Below are positions 24,553-64,000 of a stretch of DNA of 64,000 nucleotides, piece by piece. Location of the stretch: the IMG/VR virus record IMGVR_UViG_3300024255_000002; one strand, 5' to 3'. Source of the stretch: a virus. Positions within the stretch are counted from its first letter, which is position 1. Each line of letters begins with the position of its first letter. Below the pieces are notes generated by a model. That model did not search any database. It worked only from the letters and a program-made list of their open reading frames with translations, and had not been told where the DNA came from. A program made the position numbers and the translations under genes.

Positions 24553-24777
24553 ATGAGTAAAGATGATATTAAAAAATTTGTAAATTCAGTCGTAGATAAC
24601 GATAACATACAAGCACAAAAAGACTTTGCAGCTGCTGTATCAGATAAGATCGGATCAGCAATCGATGCCCAAAAACAAGAAGTCGGTAGATCAATGTTTA
24701 CAGGACAACAAGGTGTTGGCGCTCCAGAAGCAAATGTTTTTAGTGGAGGTAATATAGAAGGATCAACAGATGGTTAA
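24553..24777 (+). CDS. prohead core protein (gp67-like by position)
   Basis: Small ORF directly after portal, as in T4-like phages. Confidence 0.55.
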   Translation: MSKDDIKKFVNSVVDNDNIQAQKDFAAAVSDKIGSAIDAQKQEVGRSMFTGQQGVGAPEANVFSGGNIEGSTDG

Positions 24778-25027
24778 GACGTTCAGTAAATTTAAAGATG
24801 ATATTATAACTGAAACAAATGACTATAAGAGAACTAGGCAATATAACAAATTGAATCCTAGATTAAAACAAGCAGTAGATATGGTGTTTAAAGCCGCTGA
24901 TAAAGGTGGTGACGTTATTTCAAACTTTGAAAAAAATGTTAATACTGCTTCTAAGAAATTCAATGTTAAAGTAGATGACTTGATGGATTATTTTGATAAA
25001 GAAACACTAACCATTTTAAGGAGATAG
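24770..25027 (+). CDS. small head-associated/internal protein
   Basis: In head operon; N-terminus 'MVKTFSKFKDDIITE' resembles a capsid-targeting peptide with an IxE cleavage site. Confidence 0.5.
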   Translation: MVKTFSKFKDDIITETNDYKRTRQYNKLNPRLKQAVDMVFKAADKGGDVISNFEKNVNTASKKFNVKVDDLMDYFDKETLTILRR

Positions 25028-25028
25028 T

Positions 25029-26204
25029 ATGGCGTTCACAAGAGTTCCTGGATCGGGAGTACCTCCTGCTGTAGCTTATTATAATGATAGCGATAGTTTT
25101 ACTATTGCAGGTTCAAATTTAAATCCTCCTACTACTCAATCTGTTTTTAATGCTTTACTTTTTAATCCCGATGGAACAAAAATGTACACATTAGGATATA
25201 CTCATGGATATGGAGGAGATAAAGACCTCTTTCAATACACATTGTCAACTCCTTTTGATGTATCAACTGCTTCAGCTTCAGTTAATGATTATATTGAAGT
25301 TGGAGAATGGTCCAAAGATAACGTGGATGTGAGATTTAATAACGATGGAACAAAGCTTTTTGTTCTTTATGAAGCTAGTACTCAAAATCATCGAAGTAGA
25401 GTGTATCAATACACTTTAAGTGTTCCTTACGATATTACCAGCACTGTAACAGCAGGTTCCTCTTTAATAATAGGGGATCAGTATGATGAATTTTCAGCAA
25501 TTCTATTTAATCCTGATGGTACAAAGATGTTTGCTAGTAGGTATGGGTATATATACAAATATACTTTAAATACTCCTTTTGTTCCTACAACTGTTACAAA
25601 TACAGACAAAAGTTTTTTTCTACCCACTACAATCACTGGTATGCAATTTAATAATGATGGTACAAAGTTATTTACAGTTTATCAAGCAAGAACAATTGGT
25701 ACTAAAGCAACAATAACAGAGTGGGCATTGTCAACTGCTTATGATCCTACAACTGCAATACAACCTGCAACTGCTACCTTTATAACTGATGAAACTACAA
25801 ATGCTAATGGTGAAGTTCCTCTTCAATTTATGACTTTTAACAATAATGGAACAAAATTCTTTAGTTTTAACGGTACTAATGGAGATATTAATGGTGGATT
25901 AGCAAAAATTAAAGAATGGAATCTAGCTTCAGCTTTTAGTATGTCAAGTTCTTCTTCAGGATCATCAGGATCAGCTTCTGGTCCTTGGGAATACGATGAT
26001 ACTGCTACAGAATCAGATACTTATCCTGGATCAACTAGAGGTGCAAATATAACTATTTCTGGTGGTGTAAAAACGTATATAAAACCAGTGTCAGGAACAG
26101 CAGAACAAGTTTATATTAGTACAAGAAAACTTGGTGAAACTAAAAATCGTGGCGAATTATCTAAAACTTTTTATGATGCTCAAAACGCTAAAGGAAGACC
26201 ATAA
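25029..26204 (+). CDS. head-operon protein with beta-propeller repeats and Ser/Gly linker
   Basis: Five FN(P/N)(D/N)GTK(M/L/F) repeats, followed by (Y/W)xL motifs; SSSSSGSSGSASG linker. Confidence 0.65.
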   Translation: MAFTRVPGSGVPPAVAYYNDSDSFTIAGSNLNPPTTQSVFNALLFNPDGTKMYTLGYTHGYGGDKDLFQYTLSTPFDVSTASASVNDYIEVGEWSKDNVDVRFNNDGTKLFVLYEASTQNHRSRVYQYTLSVPYDITSTVTAGSSLIIGDQYDEFSAILFNPDGTKMFASRYGYIYKYTLNTPFVPTTVTNTDKSFFLPTTITGMQFNNDGTKLFTVYQARTIGTKATITEWALSTAYDPTTAIQPATATFITDETTNANGEVPLQFMTFNNNGTKFFSFNGTNGDINGGLAKIKEWNLASAFSMSSSSSGSSGSASGPWEYDDTATESDTYPGSTRGANITISGGVKTYIKPVSGTAEQVYISTRKLGETKNRGELSKTFYDAQNAKGRP

Positions 26205-26274: not shown

Positions 26275-26925
26275 ATGAAACTTATTACTGAAGAAATAGA
26301 AAACGCCGAGTACATTATTGAAGAATCAGGTAACGGCAAAAAAAATTACTCTATAAAGGGTGTCTTCATGCAAGCGGACATCAAAAATAAAAACGGTAGA
26401 GTTTATCCTAGAGAGACTCTTCAAAAAGAAATCGCTCGATATACAAGAGAGTTTATCGACAAAAGTAGAGCATTTGGCGAACTAGGTCATCCTGACGGTC
26501 CCACTGTCAACCTAGAAAGAGTATCGCACATGATCAAATCTTTAACTCCAGAAGGAAATAACTTTATAGGAGAGGCGAAAGTCTTAGATACCCCATATGG
26601 AAAAATTGTGAAGTCTTTAATTGATGAGGGTGCAAAACTAGGAGTTTCATCTCGTGGAATGGGAACATTAAAATCATCTAATGGAATGAATGTTGTCAAT
26701 GACGATTTTTATCTTGCTACAGCAGCTGATATAGTTGCAGACCCCAGCGCTCCAGACGCTTTCGTAGAAGGCATTATGGAAGGAAAAGAATGGGTATGGA
26801 ATAATGGAATATTGAGAGAGCAAGAAATGAAAGAATTAAAATTACAGGCAGATAAGAAAATACTAAGAGAAGAACGAGCAAATAAAAATGCTCAAATCTT
26901 TGAGAATTTTCTTAAAAAACTGTAA
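26275..26925 (+). CDS. gp21: prohead protease gp21
   Basis: 'MKLITE', 'NGRVY', 'GELGHP', 'GVSSRG.G', 'D.VADPSAPDA'; late promoter at 26239. Confidence 0.96.
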   Translation: MKLITEEIENAEYIIEESGNGKKNYSIKGVFMQADIKNKNGRVYPRETLQKEIARYTREFIDKSRAFGELGHPDGPTVNLERVSHMIKSLTPEGNNFIGEAKVLDTPYGKIVKSLIDEGAKLGVSSRGMGTLKSSNGMNVVNDDFYLATAADIVADPSAPDAFVEGIMEGKEWVWNNGILREQEMKELKLQADKKILREERANKNAQIFENFLKKL

Positions 26926-28561: not shown

Positions 28562-29911
28562 ATGTTTTTATCTGAATCAATACAACAGAAGTGGCAGCCC
28601 GTTTTGGACCATCCTGATCTTCCAGAAGTGAAGAACAGTTACAAAAGAGCCGTAACTTCAGTTATTTTAGAAAACCAAGAAAAGTCGTTAAAAGAAGACG
28701 CTGCTTTCTTATCAGAGTCAGCACCTACTAACGCTACTGGTTCTTCTATTCAAAATTGGAATCCTATCTTAATTAGTCTAGTAAGAAGAGCAATGCCTAA
28801 CCTTATCGCTTACGATATCGCTGGTGTTCAACCTATGTCAGGACCAACTGGTTTGATATTTGCTATGAGAAGCAGATACAACAGCCAATCTGGCGGTGAA
28901 GCTCTTTTTGACGAAGCTGATTCTGATTTTTCTGGCAGAAACAAAGCCGGTTCATCAGTAGATGGATTTTCATCAACAGACCACAGTGGAACTAATCCAT
29001 CTGTACTTAACGACTCATCACCAGGAACTTACACACAAGGTACTGGTATGACTACAGCTGCTGCTGAAGCTCTAGGAGATGCCGCTGGTAACTCTTTTGC
29101 TGAAATGGCATTCTCAATTGAGAAATCAACTGTAACTGCTAAAAGCAGAGCGTTAAAAGCAGAATACACAATGGAACTTGCTCAAGACTTAAAAGCAATC
29201 CATGGTTTAGACGCTGAAACAGAATTATCAAACATCTTATCTGCTGAAATCTTAGCTGAAATCAACAGAGAAGTAGTAAGATCAGTTTATATTACTGCTG
29301 AAAAAGGTGCTTCTGATAACAATGGTAACGCTGTAAACACTACTTCGGAAGGTATCTTTGATTTAGATACTGACTCAAACGGTAGATGGTCAGTTGAGAG
29401 ATTCAAAGGTCTTATGTTCCAATTGGAAAGAGACGCTAATGCAATCGCTCAAAGAACAAGAAGAGGAAAAGGTAATATAATCATTTGCTCATCTGATGTT
29501 GCTTCTGCACTTCAAATGGCTGGTGTTTTAGATTACACTCCTGCTCTTAACAACAACTTAAACGTTGATGATACTGGAAACACTTTCGCTGGTGTATTAA
29601 ATGGTAAATATAAAGTTTACATTGATCCATACAGTGCAAACCAATCTGGTAAACAATTCTACGTTGTGGGTTACAAAGGAACTTCACCATACGATGCTGG
29701 TATGTTCTATTGCCCATATGTACCACTTCAGATGGTAAGAGCTGTTGGCCAAGACACTTTCCAACCAAAAATTGGTTTCAAAACTAGATACGGTTTAGTT
29801 GCGAACCCATTTGCTGGTGCAGCTGCTGACGGTAATATTACTGTTGACGGTATTGGAAATGCTAACGCTAACAGATACTACAGACGTGTTCAAGTTGCGA
29901 ACATTATGTAA
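28562..29911 (+). CDS. gp23: major capsid protein gp23
   Basis: 'LVRR.MPNLIAYD..GVQPM.GPTG.IFA', 'AKSRALKAEYT.ELAQDLKAIHG', 'FQPKIGFKTRYG'. Confidence 0.98.
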   Translation: MFLSESIQQKWQPVLDHPDLPEVKNSYKRAVTSVILENQEKSLKEDAAFLSESAPTNATGSSIQNWNPILISLVRRAMPNLIAYDIAGVQPMSGPTGLIFAMRSRYNSQSGGEALFDEADSDFSGRNKAGSSVDGFSSTDHSGTNPSVLNDSSPGTYTQGTGMTTAAAEALGDAAGNSFAEMAFSIEKSTVTAKSRALKAEYTMELAQDLKAIHGLDAETELSNILSAEILAEINREVVRSVYITAEKGASDNNGNAVNTTSEGIFDLDTDSNGRWSVERFKGLMFQLERDANAIAQRTRRGKGNIIICSSDVASALQMAGVLDYTPALNNNLNVDDTGNTFAGVLNGKYKVYIDPYSANQSGKQFYVVGYKGTSPYDAGMFYCPYVPLQMVRAVGQDTFQPKIGFKTRYGLVANPFAGAAADGNITVDGIGNANANRYYRRVQVANIM

Positions 29912-39496: not shown

Positions 39497-39537
39497 AAAA
39501 ATAAGTGCTTGACTTTTACATCAAAATACGGTAGCAT
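39497..39537 (+). promoter_or_regulatory. early sigma70 promoter of the cobT-like gene
   Basis: aaaataagtgc-TTGACT-17-TAGCAT; 19-bp core shared with the promoter at ~41710-41749. Confidence 0.7.
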
Positions 39538-54427: not shown

Positions 54428-55447
54428 ATGAGTGATTTTTTAAAAGATATAATAAAAGAAACAGGTAATGAATACGCTACACTGATTAGTGAGGGTATTG
54501 AAGCAGGTGATGTAGATAGTTTTATTGATACAGGTTCTCACGCCTTAAATGCTTTATTATCAGGTTCTATATATGGTGGTATGCCATCAAACAAAATAAC
54601 AGCGATTGCTGGTGAAGCTGCAACAGGTAAAACTTTCTTTGCATTAGGAATTGTAAAAGCATTTTTAGATAAAAATAAAGAGGCAGGTGTAATTTACTTT
54701 GAATCAGAAAGTGCATTAACAAAAGATTTAGTTGAGGCAAGAGGTATCGATAGTAAAAGAATGGTAGTTGTGCCAGTTGCAACAGTACAAGAATTTAGAC
54801 ATCAATCAATAAAGGTTGTTGACAAATATTTAGAACAGGATGCTTCTAAAAGAAAACCTTTAATGTTTGTATTAGATAGTTTAGGTATGCTATCTACAAC
54901 AAAAGAAATGGAAGACACAGCAGAGGGTAAAGAAACTAGAGACATGACAAGATCACAAATTGTCAAGGCCGCATTTAGAGTATTAACATTGAAACTAGGT
55001 AAAGCAAAAGTTCCTATGATTATGACAAACCATACTTATGATGTTATTGGTTCAATGTTTCCACAAAAAGAAATGGGTGGTGGTTCTGGTTTAAAGTATG
55101 CTGCTTCTAATATTGTTTATCTTTCAAAACGTAAAGAAAAAGATGGCAAAGAAGTTGTGGGTAATATTATTCACTGTAAGAATTACAAGTCAAGGTTAAC
55201 AAAAGAAAATGCTTTAATAGATGTTAGATTAACATATAAAGATGGCCTTGATAAGTATTATGGGTTGCTTGATCTTGCATTGAAACATGAAATATTTAAA
55301 TCTGTTTCAACAAGAATTGAGTTACCAGATGGTACAAAACAATATGCTAAGACAATTAATAACGAACCCGAAAAGTTTTTTACTAAAGACATTCTTAAGC
55401 AGATTGATGAAGTAGCTAAAAAAGAGTTTCTATATGGACAAGACTAA
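54428..55447 (+). CDS. uvsX: RecA-like recombinase UvsX
   Basis: GEAATGKT, 'DSLG.L', 'MGGG.G..Y.AS'. Confidence 0.95.
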
Positions 55448-58642: not shown

Positions 58643-58716
58643 TATAAATAGTCATAAAAAAGATTGTATTTGTTTATGGAATAGTGCTTGACAAATAGCA
58701 CTAAATTTGATATAAT
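58643..58716 (+). promoter_or_regulatory. tandem late (TATAAATA 58643-50) and sigma70 (TTGACA 58688-93, 17 nt, TATAAT 58711-16) promoters with an inverted repeat over the -35
   Basis: tagtgct(58682-88)...agcacta(58697-703). Confidence 0.75.
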
Positions 58717-58743: not shown

Positions 58744-59967
58744 ATGCAAAGTTTTAAACAATATTTAAGTGAGGCTAAAAATACTCATTTAGAACATTTA
58801 GAAGATTCTATCATTAATGATGGATATGAAGGTGGTGTTAATGCCATTACATTTCTTAAATCATTAAGAGATATGCTTATCGGATCGTCAAGTAGAGGAT
58901 TAAACGTTTCAGTAAAATGGGACGGTGCTCCTGCTGTGATCTGTGGTATCAATCCTGAAAACGGCAAATTCTTTGTTGGATCAAAATCAGTATTCAACGT
59001 AACTCCCAAAATAAATTATACATCTGCTGATATTAGAAGAAATCACACAGGCGGACTTGCTGAAAAATTACAAGTTGCATTAGTAGAATTAAAGAAATTA
59101 GGAATCAAAGGCGTTGTTCAAGGTGACTTTTTATACACTAACAATGAATTAAAAAGTGCCAACATAAGAGGTGAAAGTGTTTTAACTTTTACACCTAATA
59201 CAATCACATATGCTGTGCCTGTAGATAGTACAATAGGTAAAAGAATTGCCTCTGCTAAAATGGGTATCATATTTCACACAACATACACTGGTAGAAAAAT
59301 GGCAGACTTAAAAGCAAACTTTGGTGTGAACGTAAGTTCATTTAGAAAAACATCATCTGTATTTTTTGATGACGCAGGATACAAAGACGCTTCAGGTGTT
59401 GCTACATTTACAACTGCTGAAAGTGAAAGATATGACGCAATGTTAAGAATGGCATTTGGTTCTGTAAGTAAAGGCAGACCAATATTAAACTTATTAAGTA
59501 AACAACAAAATTTATATTCTGTTGGTGCTAGACTTAAAATATTTTTCAATGACTTTATTAGAAGAGGTCAATCAATAGAAAATGTAAGTAAGTTAGTATC
59601 ACAATTTAGAACATATTATATTAGTGTTTTAGACAAAGAAATATCGGCAAGAAAAACACAAAATGCAAAAGATAAATTTGAAGCAATCAAAAATGAAGGA
59701 CTAAAATTTATGGAAAAAAATGAAGTCGGTATATATTTTGCCATTGCTAGTTATGTGACATTACAAAGAGTAAAAGATTTCTTAATAAACAAAATGAATC
59801 AAATAAAAAGTATAGGAACATTTTTACAAAAAGACAATGGGTTTGAAGTTACAAATCCAGAAGGATATGTTGCCGTAGATAGAATGGGCAACGCTGTAAA
59901 ACTAGTTGATAGATTAGAGTTTAGTACTGCTAACTTTAATATTTCTAAGAACTGGATAAAAGGATAA
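58744..59967 (+). CDS. ATP-dependent ligase-like nucleotidyltransferase (RNA-ligase-like) with capsid-targeting-like N-terminus
   Basis: Motif I VKWDG, Ia FVGSKS, III VVQGD, IV PEGYV, V VKLVDR; starts MQSFKQYLSE-A. Confidence 0.6.
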   Translation: MQSFKQYLSEAKNTHLEHLEDSIINDGYEGGVNAITFLKSLRDMLIGSSSRGLNVSVKWDGAPAVICGINPENGKFFVGSKSVFNVTPKINYTSADIRRNHTGGLAEKLQVALVELKKLGIKGVVQGDFLYTNNELKSANIRGESVLTFTPNTITYAVPVDSTIGKRIASAKMGIIFHTTYTGRKMADLKANFGVNVSSFRKTSSVFFDDAGYKDASGVATFTTAESERYDAMLRMAFGSVSKGRPILNLLSKQQNLYSVGARLKIFFNDFIRRGQSIENVSKLVSQFRTYYISVLDKEISARKTQNAKDKFEAIKNEGLKFMEKNEVGIYFAIASYVTLQRVKDFLINKMNQIKSIGTFLQKDNGFEVTNPEGYVAVDRMGNAVKLVDRLEFSTANFNISKNWIKG

Positions 59968-59970
59968 GAT

Positions 59971-61329
59971 ATGGCAAATTTTAGAAAAGACTCACAGGCA
60001 TTTTTAAACGATAGTAAAACTATCTTTGAAGTACCAATGATAGCAACAAAAGATGGTAATGTTGTATCACAAACAAATCCGTTTCCAGTCACAATATCAA
60101 ATACTGGAACCAGTCAAACAATTTCAACAGAAACAAATGTGGATGCTTTTGGTAGAAGTAGAATATCATCACCACTAACACTATTTGATTCCTCACATAG
60201 ATTTGCTGATAATGATTTATGGAATGAAGATATTACAGGTGACGCTTCATCAACCTTTCAAATAAATGAGGGTCTAATAGATTTAACAGTTGGTGATAAT
60301 GCTAATGATGAAATTATTAGAGAAACAAATAAAGTAATGGCTTATCAACCTGGTAAATCATTGTTAATTTTAAATTCTTTTATATTTAATGCTGCTAAAA
60401 CTGGATTAAGACAAAGAATAGGATATTTTGGAACAGACAATGGTATCTATTTTGAACAAGATGGTACAGATGTTTATATAGTAGAAAGAAGTAAAATAAC
60501 AGGTTCAGTTGTAGAAAGTAGAATTGCTCAAGCAGATTGGAATATAGATAAATTAGATGGCACAGGTATAACAGGTTATACTTTAGATTTAACAAAAGCA
60601 CAAATTCAATATATAGATTTAGAATGGTTAGGTGTAGGAACCGTAAGAGCAGGTTTTGTTATTAATGGTAGATTTGTAGTTGCTCACGCATTTCATCACG
60701 CTAATTTAGTATCTGGAACATATATCACTACAGGTTCTTTACCTTTAAGATGTGAAATTAAACAACAAACGGAAGTTGGAGATGGTTCTACCGCTACATT
60801 AAAACAAGTTTGTTCTAGTGTTATGAGTGAAGGTGGTTATGAATTAAGAGGAAGGCAACAAGCTATTGGAACAGTGATTACTTCTCCTTATAGATTAACA
60901 ACTGCTGGAACTTATTATCCTGTAGCTTCTATAAGACTAAAAGCTGCAAGACTAGATGCAATTGTTATTCTTACTGCTTTATCTTTATTGGGAACTGGAA
61001 ATGGAAAATTTTATAATTGGCAAGTGGTTGCTGGTGGAAGTATTGCGGGTGGAACTTGGGTGTCTGGTGGAGCAAACTCATCTGTTGAATATAATATTAC
61101 AGGCACTGATCACACATTAGGGACAGGAAGAATATTGGCTAGTGGTTTTACTTCTTCTTCCAAACAAATAAGTGAATCTATTAATATATTAAAAGAAGCT
61201 TTATTTAAGTTTCAATTAGAGAGAAATACATTTACTAGTACACCTGAAATTTTAACATTGAGATTGGCTTGTGATAGTAATACAGAAGATGTTTTTGGTT
61301 CCATGGACTGGGAGGAGGTTACTAGATAA
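59971..61329 (+). CDS. hypothetical beta-rich protein, probably virion structural
   Basis: 'NPFPV', 'DAFGR.R.S.P.TLF', 'YQPGKS', 'EWLGVG.VR.GF'; G/T-rich. Confidence 0.55.
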   Translation: MANFRKDSQAFLNDSKTIFEVPMIATKDGNVVSQTNPFPVTISNTGTSQTISTETNVDAFGRSRISSPLTLFDSSHRFADNDLWNEDITGDASSTFQINEGLIDLTVGDNANDEIIRETNKVMAYQPGKSLLILNSFIFNAAKTGLRQRIGYFGTDNGIYFEQDGTDVYIVERSKITGSVVESRIAQADWNIDKLDGTGITGYTLDLTKAQIQYIDLEWLGVGTVRAGFVINGRFVVAHAFHHANLVSGTYITTGSLPLRCEIKQQTEVGDGSTATLKQVCSSVMSEGGYELRGRQQAIGTVITSPYRLTTAGTYYPVASIRLKAARLDAIVILTALSLLGTGNGKFYNWQVVAGGSIAGGTWVSGGANSSVEYNITGTDHTLGTGRILASGFTSSSKQISESINILKEALFKFQLERNTFTSTPEILTLRLACDSNTEDVFGSMDWEEVTR

Positions 61330-61913
61330 TGAAAACATTTAGAACATATATTAAAGAGGCACAACAAAGACGAATAGTTATGTTAGGTGGTCCTGGTTCA
61401 GGTAAATCAACATACACTAAGTATTTGATGGATAGATACGGCATACCTCACATATATCCAGGTGGCATGTTAAGAAAAGAAGTTGAGAAAAATACAGAAA
61501 TAGGAAAACAAATTAAAGATTTAATTACAAAAGGTAAGTTTGCACCTAGTGAAATGGTTTTAAAACTTATTAAAGACAGAATTGCAGAAAGTCCAGACGG
61601 ATATGTATTAGACGGATGGCCTAGATATATGAAACAAGTAAGAGAAATGGAACGAGAAAATATCGGACATGATGTTGCTGTGTTTTTAGATGTAAGTAAA
61701 GAAGAAGTAATGAAACGATTACTTGCAAGAGGTAGAGTTGATGATACCGAAGAAGTTATCAACGATAGAATTAAACTATACAAAGAAGAAACTGGTCCTG
61801 TTGTAGAATACTTTAGAAATAAACCTGGTTTTATAAGTATTAAAGCAGAGGGTGATACACCAGAAAACATTAGTAAAAAAATTATTAGAGAAATAGAAAA
61901 TGAAAAGCTTTAA
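61329..61913 (+). CDS. adk: adenylate kinase (short-LID type) with capsid-targeting-like N-terminus
   Basis: GGPGSGKST, 'G.MLR', 'VLDGWPR', 'RGR.DD...I..R...Y...T.PV'; starts MKTFRTYIKE-A. Confidence 0.88.
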   Translation: MKTFRTYIKEAQQRRIVMLGGPGSGKSTYTKYLMDRYGIPHIYPGGMLRKEVEKNTEIGKQIKDLITKGKFAPSEMVLKLIKDRIAESPDGYVLDGWPRYMKQVREMERENIGHDVAVFLDVSKEEVMKRLLARGRVDDTEEVINDRIKLYKEETGPVVEYFRNKPGFISIKAEGDTPENISKKIIREIENEKL

Positions 61914-64000
61914 ACAATTTAACGAGTCTATTATAGACATACCAAGAAAAACGTATGCAAAGGCAGTATTTGATAAACCAGATACACCTAATCCAGAGTT
62001 AAAAGCTTCAGTTAAAAAACAAGTATTAGACGGAATTAAGTCATTTGAAAAATTTGGAAAAGTAGTTAAGTATGGTCTTATTGGATCAATACTAACAAAA
62101 CAATATAGAGGTGACGCTGACCTTGATGTTAATATTTTATTTGATATACCTGGTTCAAAAGAAGAACAAGAAAAGGTACATGAAAAAATAAAAGAACATC
62201 AATATGAAATAAATGGTAAAACAATACCAGGCAGTGAACATCCTATAAACTATTTTTCTATCATAGATCCTGCTATATTTGATAAGGCAAATAAGATGGC
62301 AGATGGTATTTTTGATATCGATAAGAACAAATGGATCAAAAAACCAGAACCAGGCAAATTTGAACCTGAAAAATATATGGCGGATTTTCAGAAACGAGTA
62401 TCTGAAATAGATGTTGTTAAGGGTGAATTGGCAAGAGACATGATTGATTATGAAGAACTAAAAGAACTAGGCAAAGACGATATAGAAAACCTAGAAGGAT
62501 TAGTTTCTAAAAAGTTAGCTGAAATTAAAGATTCCATTAACACATTATTTGATATTGGTGCTAAAACTGTTAAAGATCGAAAAGACGCTTTCTTAGCAGA
62601 TATGTCACCAGACGAAGTAAGAAAATTTGGAGTAAAAAACCGACTTCCTAAAAACGTGATTTATAAAATGTTAGAAAAGTATCATTATCTCAAATTCTTT
62701 AAAACTTTGGAAGAGATTATGTTGGATGGTAAAATAACACCAGATGAACTTAAATCGTTATCTAAGATTAAAGAAGCCAAAGGTAGACATATAGCGTTTA
62801 CCTTTGGCCGATTTAATCCACCTACAATAGGACATGGAAAATTATTACAAAAATTATTTACAGTTAGAGCAGACAACCACTTTATATTTTTAAGTAGATC
62901 GGAAGACTCAGATAAGAACCCATTATCATTTAGAGAGAAGTCAAAAGTTATGAAACAAATGTTTCCTAGATATGCTTCAAACATAATAGTAAGTGGTTCA
63001 AATAGAGTATTTGATATAGTCACTGATCTTTACAATAAAGGTGCTACAGAATTATCAATGGTTGTCGGTTCAGATAGAGTAAGAGAATTTGACACCACTA
63101 TTAAAAAATATAATGGTGTAAAAAGCAGACATGGTTATTATAACTTTGATAACATTAATATAGTTTCTGCTGGAGAAAGAGATCCAGATGCTGACGGCGC
63201 TACAGGAATGTCAGCAAGTAAAATGAGAGCGGCCGCTAAGGCAAATGATTTAGATGCATTTAAAAAAGGATTGCCAAGTGGATTTAGAGACGCCGAAGAA
63301 TTAATAAAAAGATTAAGACAAGGCATGAGATTGGCTGCTTCAAACGATCCAGAAATAGAAGAAGGAACATTAAAGTTTAAACCATTTATAACTGCTTCTA
63401 CAAAAGAGGAGTTAGAAAATATGATTATAAGAGACAAGTATTTAACAGAGCATTTATATGATGTAGGAGACATTGTTGATGATGTTGAGAATAAAGTTAC
63501 AGGTGTTATCGTAAGACGAGGAACAAACTATGTAACACTTGAAGACGTTGATAATAAACTACATAAGTCATGGTTATTTAATATTATTGAATCGCCTGTT
63601 TATCCTAGAGAATTAGACGAGTCGGCAAAAAAATTAAAATACGACAAAGAGACAGATCAACCTAAAAAATATGTTGCTGGTTTATCAGACAAAGAGAAGA
63701 AGTCACACGACAAACATTTAGAAAAACAAGGCAAAAAATCTGACGATGATAAAAGTGCTTACACACAATCGCCAGCAGATAAAGTTGCTAAAACTAAACC
63801 AAGTGTTCATACAAAGAAATTCAAACAAATGTATGGTGAACTTAAAACTGAAAAAGAGCCACAAAAAAGAGGTGATGAATTTGTAGATACTGGATTGCCT
63901 GAAAGTTCAAATAGAAAGGCAGATGAGTTAGAACATGCTAAATTAATGAATAAGGCACTTAGAACTATGCCACAATCTATTAAACAAAAAGAAATTATAA
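61900..64000 (+). CDS. large multidomain protein, 3'-truncated: Pol-beta-type nucleotidyltransferase + HxGH cytidylyltransferase-like domain + further domains (absent from ORF track because it runs off the window)
   Basis: Manual translation open from ATG 61900 to the window end: MKSFKQFNES...LIGSILTKQYRGDADLDV (GS..DxD)...TFGRFNPPTIGHGKL...VGSDR...SAGERDPD..MSASKMR. Confidence 0.8.
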   Translation, partial: MKSFKQFNESIIDIPRKTYAKAVFDKPDTPNPELKASVKKQVLDGIKSFEKFGKVVKYGLIGSILTKQYRGDADLDVNILFDIPGSKEEQEKVHEKIKEHQYEINGKTIPGSEHPINYFSIIDPAIFDKANKMADGIFDIDKNKWIKKPEPGKFEPEKYMADFQKRVSEIDVVKGELARDMIDYEELKELGKDDIENLEGLVSKKLAEIKDSINTLFDIGAKTVKDRKDAFLADMSPDEVRKFGVKNRLPKNVIYKMLEKYHYLKFFKTLEEIMLDGKITPDELKSLSKIKEAKGRHIAFTFGRFNPPTIGHGKLLQKLFTVRADNHFIFLSRSEDSDKNPLSFREKSKVMKQMFPRYASNIIVSGSNRVFDIVTDLYNKGATELSMVVGSDRVREFDTTIKKYNGVKSRHGYYNFDNINIVSAGERDPDADGATGMSASKMRAAAKANDLDAFKKGLPSGFRDAEELIKRLRQGMRLAASNDPEIEEGTLKFKPFITASTKEELENMIIRDKYLTEHLYDVGDIVDDVENKVTGVIVRRGTNYVTLEDVDNKLHKSWLFNIIESPVYPRELDESAKKLKYDKETDQPKKYVAGLSDKEKKSHDKHLEKQGKKSDDDKSAYTQSPADKVAKTKPSVHTKKFKQMYGELKTEKEPQKRGDEFVDTGLPESSNRKADELEHAKLMNKALRTMPQSIKQKEII

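Follow-up and report, generated by a model that had tools for sequence, protein, structure and literature searches.

The 64,000-nucleotide stretch of the virus record IMGVR_UViG_3300024255_000002 (IMG/VR) that was analysed here, referred to below as the window, ends in a cluster of genes from position 58,744 onward. Three of these encode enzymes, namely an RNA-ligase-like protein of the Pfam family DUF6267, an adenylate kinase (Adk) and a fusion of two nucleotidyltransferases, and all three begin with a related peptide of about 10 residues. By analogy with bacteriophage T4, we consider it likely that this peptide is a capsid-targeting sequence (CTS) of the T4 type and that the enzymes are packaged in the head, cleaved and delivered with the DNA. 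Because tagged proteins are found in the particle of two related cyanophages, the enzymes are probably injected together with the DNA. The new element is the tie between the tag and the published virion proteomes of these cyanophages, S-SM1 and S-CREM2.

N-terminal peptides and the T4 capsid-targeting sequence

T4 internal proteins with a CTS were reportedly described by Mullaney and Black in 1996. The sequence is MKTYQEFIAE, and mutational work has assigned targeting to residues 4 and 7 and processing to residues 8 and 10 (reviewed in PMC9026906). In the T4 record, ipII and ipIII both begin with exactly these residues followed by Ala, as the first-pass annotation of the window had stated for IPII and IPIII. 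The N-termini which it had quoted (MQSFKQYLSE-A, MKTFRTYIKE-A and MKSFKQFNE-S) were recovered letter by letter in the open reading frame (ORF) calls at 58744, 61329 and 61900, and the remaining one of the last four genes, at 59971, is without the peptide, again as described. All three peptides carry aromatic residues at the targeting positions (F4 and Y7 or F7), and the T4 determinants F4, Y/F7, L/I8 and E10 are present, the third tag being one residue shorter. The processing end fits in YLSE/A and YIKE/A (the slash marks the predicted cut); in the third peptide, FNE/S, the residue at P3 is Phe.

A six-frame regular-expression scan covering the ~67 plus-strand ORFs of the window placed the pattern at the starts of these three ORFs and of the head-operon ORF at 24770, and at no others. 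In a complete 165.7-kb relative with ~73% identity at the protein level (G002), the motif, strict or shift-tolerant, marks only 4 of 264 ORF starts, every one of them in the orthologous cluster, and chance resemblance is thereby excluded. The comparison was extended to 80 related loci and took in orthologues of DUF6267, Adk, a second P-loop kinase, the transferase fusion and a 143-residue protein, nearly all of which keep aromatic-x-x-aromatic-[LIVF]-x-E at the N-terminus. The motif is retained in orthologues down to ~40% identity, across phages of SAR11, OM43 and cyanobacteria. Among 35 orthologues of the transferase fusion, E9 of the tag is invariant and F4 nearly so.

Codon usage within the tag was analysed in orthologues chosen beforehand for F or Y at position 4 and for F, Y, H, L or I at position 7; of the 39 aligned Adk orthologues 34 qualified, and of the 79 for DUF6267, 76. 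In these preselected sets, positions 4 and 7 stay aromatic through changes among TTT, TTC, TAT and TAC; all 34 Adk sequences have F at position 4 and F or Y at position 7, with synonymous codon changes. Ser3 is coded by both the AGY and the TCN families. Since the aromatic positions are kept through codon changes and Ser3 occurs in both codon families, selection acts on the protein and not on the DNA. The first 30 bases of the tagged genes are identical in pairwise comparison at 14–24 of 30 positions.

The tag is a separable add-on module which is unstructured in the models. Among 150 representatives of DUF6267 (no pair more than 50% identical), 14 start directly at the domain (MxKNTHLEHL) and 55 carry an extension of 5–20 residues, which in 32 of the 55 matches the strict motif; the DUF6267 proteins of cyanophages P-HM2 and S-SM1 are without the tag. 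In the alignment with E. coli Adk (1ake), residue 15 of the phage enzyme falls on residue 2, so that the cellular enzyme lacks the 13 N-terminal residues of the phage protein, a comparison which the first-pass annotation had proposed as a check. In AlphaFold models the predicted local distance difference test score is 41 for residues 1–10 of DUF6267 versus 92.8 for the whole model, and 32 for residues 1–12 of the transferase domain; in both, low confidence at the N-terminal end is confined to the tag.

Two observations concern how loosely the motif may be drawn. Pelagibacter phage HTVC008M, the nearest named phage, shows no match to the strict motif; looser variants occur in its gp126 (MLSFTGYSNLSE/A) and gp127 (MYNDLLVE/D). 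The start of UvsX, encoded in the window at 54428–55447, is a loose look-alike of the tag without the second aromatic residue and is a caution against relaxed motif definitions.

Tagged proteins in cyanophage virions

Purified virions of S-SM1 contain 41 proteins, among them a ‘cytidylyltransferase’, T4-GC190, with 25 counts, and, also from the interval between the gp41 and gp61 genes, GC1453, GC1454, GC1455, GC425 and GC426 (Sullivan et al., 2010; PMC3037559). The T4-GC190 protein starts with MKKFSAFLNE/A, the sole strict match in the whole S-SM1 genome. For S-CREM2, 52 virion proteins have been reported (PMC10665884). A scan from every possible start codon of this genome returned five strict matches, the fifth internal to a long ORF. 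The four at true N-termini, ORF6 (S-adenosylmethionine (SAM) hydrolase), ORF14 (kinase), ORF136 and ORF154 (cytidylyltransferase), were all detected in the virion (4/4; hypergeometric p=0.003), and with the relaxed motif 6 of 7 were (p=0.0009). The tag occurs in this genome of 48% GC at three separate loci, and the proteins which carry it are unrelated to each other and all virion-detected. The S-CREM1 proteome (14 proteins) was left out as too shallow.

The association is seen in two independent data sets, S-SM1 and S-CREM2, and the tag therefore predicts virion association. The first-pass annotation had held that its reading would fail if the pattern were equally common in non-virion proteins; in both cyanophages it is confined to virion-detected ones. 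For the homologues, mature virions yielded tryptic peptides at 11–27% coverage, and hence these proteins are not fully degraded in the head. The authors of the S-CREM2 study remark that kinases and cytidyltransferases recur in cyanophage virions (PMC10665884). The S-SM1 and S-CREM2 papers place the proteins in virions with no mention of a tag or CTS (PMC3037559, PMC10665884), and the S-CREM2 text uses neither the word ‘internal’ nor the term ‘capsid targeting’ (PMC10665884). A literature search found no paper linking the CTS to cyanophages or pelagiphages.

One S-CREM2 locus (OR473000, 7704–13331; L099) holds the operon ORF15-14-13-12, which encodes four virion-detected proteins, all tagged: a protein of unknown function, an APH-like kinase, another protein of unknown function and a ‘Cas9-like’ nuclease. 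In ORF12 the tag lies at residues 17–25 after a CTG codon, and the annotated start may be wrong.

The tagged enzymes, their operon and the head genes

All long ORFs of the window are on the plus strand. They include replication genes and a T4-type structural module with sheath, tube, portal, gp21-type protease (26275), scaffold protein and gp23 (28562). The virus is a T4-like phage of the marine bacterium SAR11; after HTVC008M, the OM43 phage Melnitz and T4-like cyanophages are the next relatives. In the sea, pelagimyophages and T4-like cyanophages belong to the most abundant viruses. The cluster forms a single operon flanked by the genes of the helicase (gp41) and the primase (gp61); coordinates of its features and of those in the head operon are collected in Table 1.

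Table 1. Features of the tagged cluster and of the head operon (positions in the window)
Feature	Position	Strand	Basis
T4-type late promoter TATAAATA heading the cluster	58643..58650	+	Sequence match; conserved in relatives
Perfect (12/12) sigma-70 early-type promoter, TTGACA-17-TATAAT with TG extension	58688..58716	+	Consensus match
DUF6267 protein, 407 residues, putative RNA-ligase-like covalent nucleotidyltransferase (K58-x-D60-G61)	58744..59967	+	Pfam DUF6267, E 5e-123
CTS-like tag MQSFKQYLSE, predicted cut after E10 (next residue A)	58744..58773	+	ORF calls, motif scan
Untagged 452-residue protein, PHROG 1645 (‘virion structural protein’)	59971..61329	+	PHROG match
Short-type adenylate kinase, 194 residues, 13-residue N-terminal extension	61329..61913	+	Pfam ADK, E 6e-38
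CTS-like tag MKTFRTYIKE, predicted cut after E10 (next residue A)	61329..61358	+	ORF calls, motif scan
Fusion of putative Pol-beta-type nucleotidyltransferase, HIGH-motif (cytidylyltransferase/NMNAT-like) nucleotidyltransferase and DUF5824; cut by window end	61900..64000	+	Pfam, PHROG, orthologues
CTS-like tag MKSFKQFNE, predicted cut after E9 (next residue S)	61900..61926	+	ORF calls, motif scan
Internal I-K-E/A site (E292/A293), just before the second transferase domain	62767..62775	+	Orthologue comparison
Small basic head-operon protein, 85 residues, shifted tag MVKTFSKFKDDIITE/T	24770..25027	+	ORF call, motif scan
gp21-type prohead protease (Peptidase_S77)	26275..26925	+	Pfam, E 1.3e-33; PHROG 207, E 2.8e-82
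Predicted maturation site of gp23 (major capsid protein), F-L-S-E52/S	28706..28717	+	HMMER alignment onto T4 gp23 FLTE65/A66

The functional labels of the first-pass annotation (‘ligase-like’, ‘adenylate kinase’, ‘two nucleotidyltransferase domains’) are backed by Pfam, by conserved motifs and by structure comparison. DUF6267, listed by Pfam as a domain of unknown function, is a family of more than 2,700 representative clusters, and no paper mentioning it was found in the literature. In 100 sequences with 37–50% identity to the query, no variation is seen at K58, D60, G374 and K386, and at least 90% have G61 and E373; these positions would fit ligase motifs I, IV and V. Comparison of the model by VIA-align returned ligases for all of the best 13 structural neighbours, 10 of 13 being RNA or tRNA ligases, at Z-scores of only 8.3–5.9, and Foldseek gave no significant match in the Protein Data Bank (PDB; E >0.1). 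With the ATP-dependent RNA ligases (Naegleria NgrRnl, 5cot, Z 8.3; Trl1 ligase domain, 7.8; REL1, 7.5; T4 Rnl2, 7.4, and Rnl1, 7.0), the protein would have in common the adenylyltransferase fold, over ~180–200 aligned residues, and it carries the invariant KxDG, the EG motif and a downstream Lys. Unlike in those enzymes, a helical insertion of ~130 residues (224–354) interrupts the domain; identity to them is just 10–15% and the Z-scores are middling. Judged from the model, RNA-ligase-like is a reasonable reading of DUF6267.

The adenylate kinase scores 130.8 bits against the Pfam ADK cutoff of 26.8 and contains the P-loop GGPGSGKS. With the NCBIfam adk models it reaches 151 bits, under their 168-bit cutoff, and the exact nucleoside monophosphate (NMP) substrate is therefore not certain.

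The full length of the transferase fusion is 984 residues in G001, an IMG/VR contig which is 97–98% identical over the cluster. In its Pol-beta-type domain, G62, S63, D72 and D74 (GS...DxD) are invariant; the Pfam NTP_transf_2 score of 20.9 bits is just under the cutoff of 21, and the Foldseek neighbours are weak (MNT antitoxins and CD-NTases, E 0.02), with none significant against the PDB. The second transferase domain carries the motif FGRFNPPTIGH and scores 21.4 with Pfam CTP_transf_like (cutoff 21) and E 1e-63 to 1e-68 with PHROG 3041/395; against the PDB and NCBIfam it gives marginal, remote matches to PPAT and NMNAT only. A few residues ahead of the FGRFNPP of this domain, most orthologues (L003–L079) have a Glu with Ala or Gly after it, and in many of them the P3 residue is hydrophobic, and in the stand-alone enzyme of Melnitz the N-terminal tag ends at the position equivalent to E292. 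From these alignments, the internal IKE/A is probably a cut made by the prohead protease which separates the two enzymes of the fusion in the head.

The untagged ORF 59971 is present in two related loci (L008, L012) and precisely missing from G001, L015 and L020; it is hence a variable insert in the cargo operon. Its identification with the S-SM1 virion protein T4-GC344 was ruled out, as BLASTP shows no similarity. In G001 the cluster runs past the point at which the window ends and adds two tagged ORFs, MKTFRQHIKE/G and MKSFKNWFE/S; the cargo proteins downstream in this contig are of 144 and 221 residues. A HAD-type nucleotidase lies further along the cluster. In most relatives another P-loop kinase with a tag separates Adk from the transferase fusion (L008 13153–13842, L015, L020; gp129 of HTVC008M), with a weak PSTK/polynucleotide-kinase-like match; it is absent from the window and from G001. 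In T4 itself, gene 61.1 (NC_000866, 18966–19130; 54 residues) starts with MKTFKEFIKE, a near-perfect CTS, and lies between genes 41 and 61, the interval where the marine phages have the tagged cluster. Its product may be a packaged peptide that has gone unrecognised, or the gene may be what is left of that cluster.

The late promoter which had been placed at the head of the cluster stands: TATAAATA precedes DUF6267 in all relatives examined, and its 17 copies in the window are all on the plus strand and nearly all shortly before a start codon. In S-CREM2, 3 of 12 copies genome-wide are directly before tag-gene operons. The cluster is not purely late, however, since a perfect sigma-70 promoter, which had been missed, sits between the late promoter and the start codon of ORF 58744. 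It is conserved in closer relatives only, and its -35 element falls within an inverted repeat, TAGTGC...GCACTA (58682–58703), a possible operator. With both promoters preceding the cluster, it is probably expressed both early and late. Two side observations concern these elements: the block GTGCTTGAC of the promoter region recurs exactly at 39505 and 41717, and in the S-CREM2 genome there are only two minus-strand copies of TATAAATA, both heading tag operons.

The gp21-type protease encoded in the head operon has LITE/E and IIE/E sites at its own N-terminus. For orientation, mature T4 gp23 comprises 456 of 521 residues; the site predicted for gp23 of the window, FLSE/S, is nearly the same tetrapeptide as the YLSE/A end of the DUF6267 tag, and the specificity of the protease would be the same as that of the tag ends. 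ORF 24770, which begins with MVKTFSKFKDDIITE as had been quoted, encodes a protein with an isoelectric point of 9.6 after the predicted cut and is a candidate internal protein. Its interpretation as a gp68 homologue was ruled out, with no detectable similarity to T4 gp67, gp68 or gp22. Between this ORF and gp21, a 391-residue ORF (25029–26204) contains five FN(N/P)DGTK(L/M)F repeats ~45–60 residues apart in a propeller-like arrangement; it had no Pfam or PHROG match.

Alternative explanations and comparison with known systems

Support for the reading as capsid-targeting peptides, put forward in the first-pass annotation, comes from the T4 determinants, the detachable nature of the tag, the gp21-type protease, the matching gp23 site and the cyanophage proteomes. 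We infer by analogy that this phage packages and cleaves the proteins, that they are ejected into the host and that they have a role there. Late in infection the cluster would be transcribed from the TATAAATA promoter, and the tag would dock each protein on the scaffolding core of the assembling prohead. The cargo would consist of the DUF6267 enzyme, the adenylate kinase and the two-transferase fusion, together with the 144- and 221-residue proteins of G001, the small basic product of ORF 24770 being a further candidate. The gp21-type protease would then cut after the Glu of the tag, and probably also at the internal site of the fusion; the mature enzymes would remain in the head, reach the next host together with the DNA and thereby be present ahead of all phage gene expression.

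The most plausible role for the enzymes would be the mending of cut RNA or the resetting of nucleotide and cofactor pools against host defences. The set (a ligase-like enzyme, one or more NMP kinases, two nucleotidyltransferases and a HAD-type nucleotidase) is consistent with RNA end-healing and sealing or, equally, with the resupply of nucleotides and nicotinamide adenine dinucleotide (NAD). The specific idea of a kit for RNA repair and recycling of adenosine monophosphate appears possible rather than probable. Rather doubtful is the wider proposal that marine T4-like phages of SAR11, OM43 and cyanobacteria share a tag by which a conserved set of enzymes encoded in an operon (DUF6267 as an undescribed family of RNA ligases; nucleotide kinases; Pol-beta and NMNAT-like transferases) is loaded into the head, that the head protease divides the multi-domain cargo at tag-derived internal sites, that the enzymes are injected for the repair of RNA damaged by host defences or for nucleotide/NAD restoration at time zero, and that T4 61.1 is a remnant of the cluster. 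That a known T4 mechanism is extended to new cargo in very abundant marine phages is well supported.

Several points speak against delivery of these enzymes by a CTS. The third tag is shortened at its end and reads F-N-E instead of L/I-x-E, and a clade of DUF6267 orthologues has kept the aromatic residues and is missing the Glu (MFSFKGFVTKGT), so that the tag is not cleaved in every orthologue. No DUF6267 protein is known from a virion; the untagged S-SM1 member (T4-GC71) is not among the 41 virion proteins of that phage. The proteome statistics depend on few proteins (4–7 in S-CREM2, 1–2 in S-SM1), and the link to pelagimyophages depends on motif similarity and the cyanophage homologues. Abundant late proteins may co-purify with virions, as the S-CREM2 authors point out (PMC10665884). 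Early synthesis of the enzymes would be compatible with packaging but would make injection less obligatory.

It is unlikely, in our judgement, that the tagged proteins enter the prohead merely to act or be degraded there, as scaffold or core components or as counter-ions in DNA condensation, with no active delivery. Most T4 core proteins are indeed degraded by gp21 and leave the head, the tagged proteins carry several further [LI]xE sites, and with the early promoter a catalytic role could come from early synthesis inside the cell. Yet the catalytic motifs of the cargo (KxDG, P-loop, GS..DxD, HIGH) are conserved, peptides of the homologues persist in mature virions, and T4 delivers CTS-fused foreign enzymes into cells (PMC9026906). 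We find it very unlikely that the shared N-terminus serves a purpose outside the capsid, be it as docking helix of a cytoplasmic complex, as a regulatory or degron signal, or as a translation-initiation feature of an AT-rich genome. The A/T-rich codons of the tag (ATG AAA ACN TTT AAA ...), the look-alike start of the non-virion protein UvsX and the fact that the tagged genes are neighbours which could simply work together would all agree with such a purpose. However, the same tag marks unrelated, virion-detected proteins at the three S-CREM2 loci in spite of the 48% GC of that genome, it is conserved at the amino-acid and not the nucleotide level, it agrees at each residue with a packaging signal which experiments have shown to be sufficient, and UvsX fails the rule of an aromatic residue 7. 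There remains a functionless tag, due to chance resemblance or to recent local duplication of a 30-bp gene start. The extent of identity between these first 30 bases is compatible with a common origin; this explanation is nevertheless already contradicted by the conservation data, namely the retention of the motif across the three groups of phages down to ~40% identity and its absence from the other ~260 ORFs of G002, and by its enrichment in virion proteomes, and we regard it as exceedingly improbable.

Should the tag work as in T4, it would explain the recurring cytidylyltransferases, kinases and SAM hydrolase in cyanophage virion proteomes, for which the authors left contamination open. Genomes or metagenomes by themselves would then suffice to predict injected cargo by a rule based on sequence, the DUF6267 family would gain a likely fold and an activity that can be tested, and a set of enzymes would be at hand which act in the host before phage gene expression, when RNA-cutting and NAD-depleting defences fire.

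Among known systems, T4 IPI, IPII and IPIII come closest. They share with the window genes the N-terminal tag of ~10 residues (aromatic at 4 and 7, hydrophobic at 8, Glu10, then Ala or Ser) on otherwise unrelated proteins, the gp21-type protease encoded by the phage and the late promoter. Unlike these small basic proteins, the cargo described here consists of enzymes of 21–111 kDa, encoded in one operon between the gp41 and gp61 genes with an early promoter added and one tag a residue shorter, and its packaging and cleavage are predicted. T4 Alt and the CTS-fusion vectors, whose enzymes are packaged, processed by gp21 and injected, set the precedent for active enzymes, even of the size of beta-galactosidase, being packaged in the head and delivered (PMC9026906); Alt is an ADP-ribosyltransferase of host takeover without homology to the enzymes found here. 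The cyanophage virion proteins (T4-GC190 of S-SM1; ORF6, ORF12–15 and ORF154 of S-CREM2) have matching tags (MKKFSAFLNE, MKNFSSFLTE, MKDFDSFLEE). The tagged S-SM1 gene occupies the same gp41–gp61 neighbourhood as the window cluster, and the third window gene holds the orthologous transferase domain, with 39.6% identity to the S-SM1 protein over residues 298–564 of the fusion. In contrast to the cyanophages, the pelagiphage also has Adk and a DUF6267 protein with a tag, and in its fusion a Pol-beta-type transferase precedes the cytidylyltransferase-like domain.

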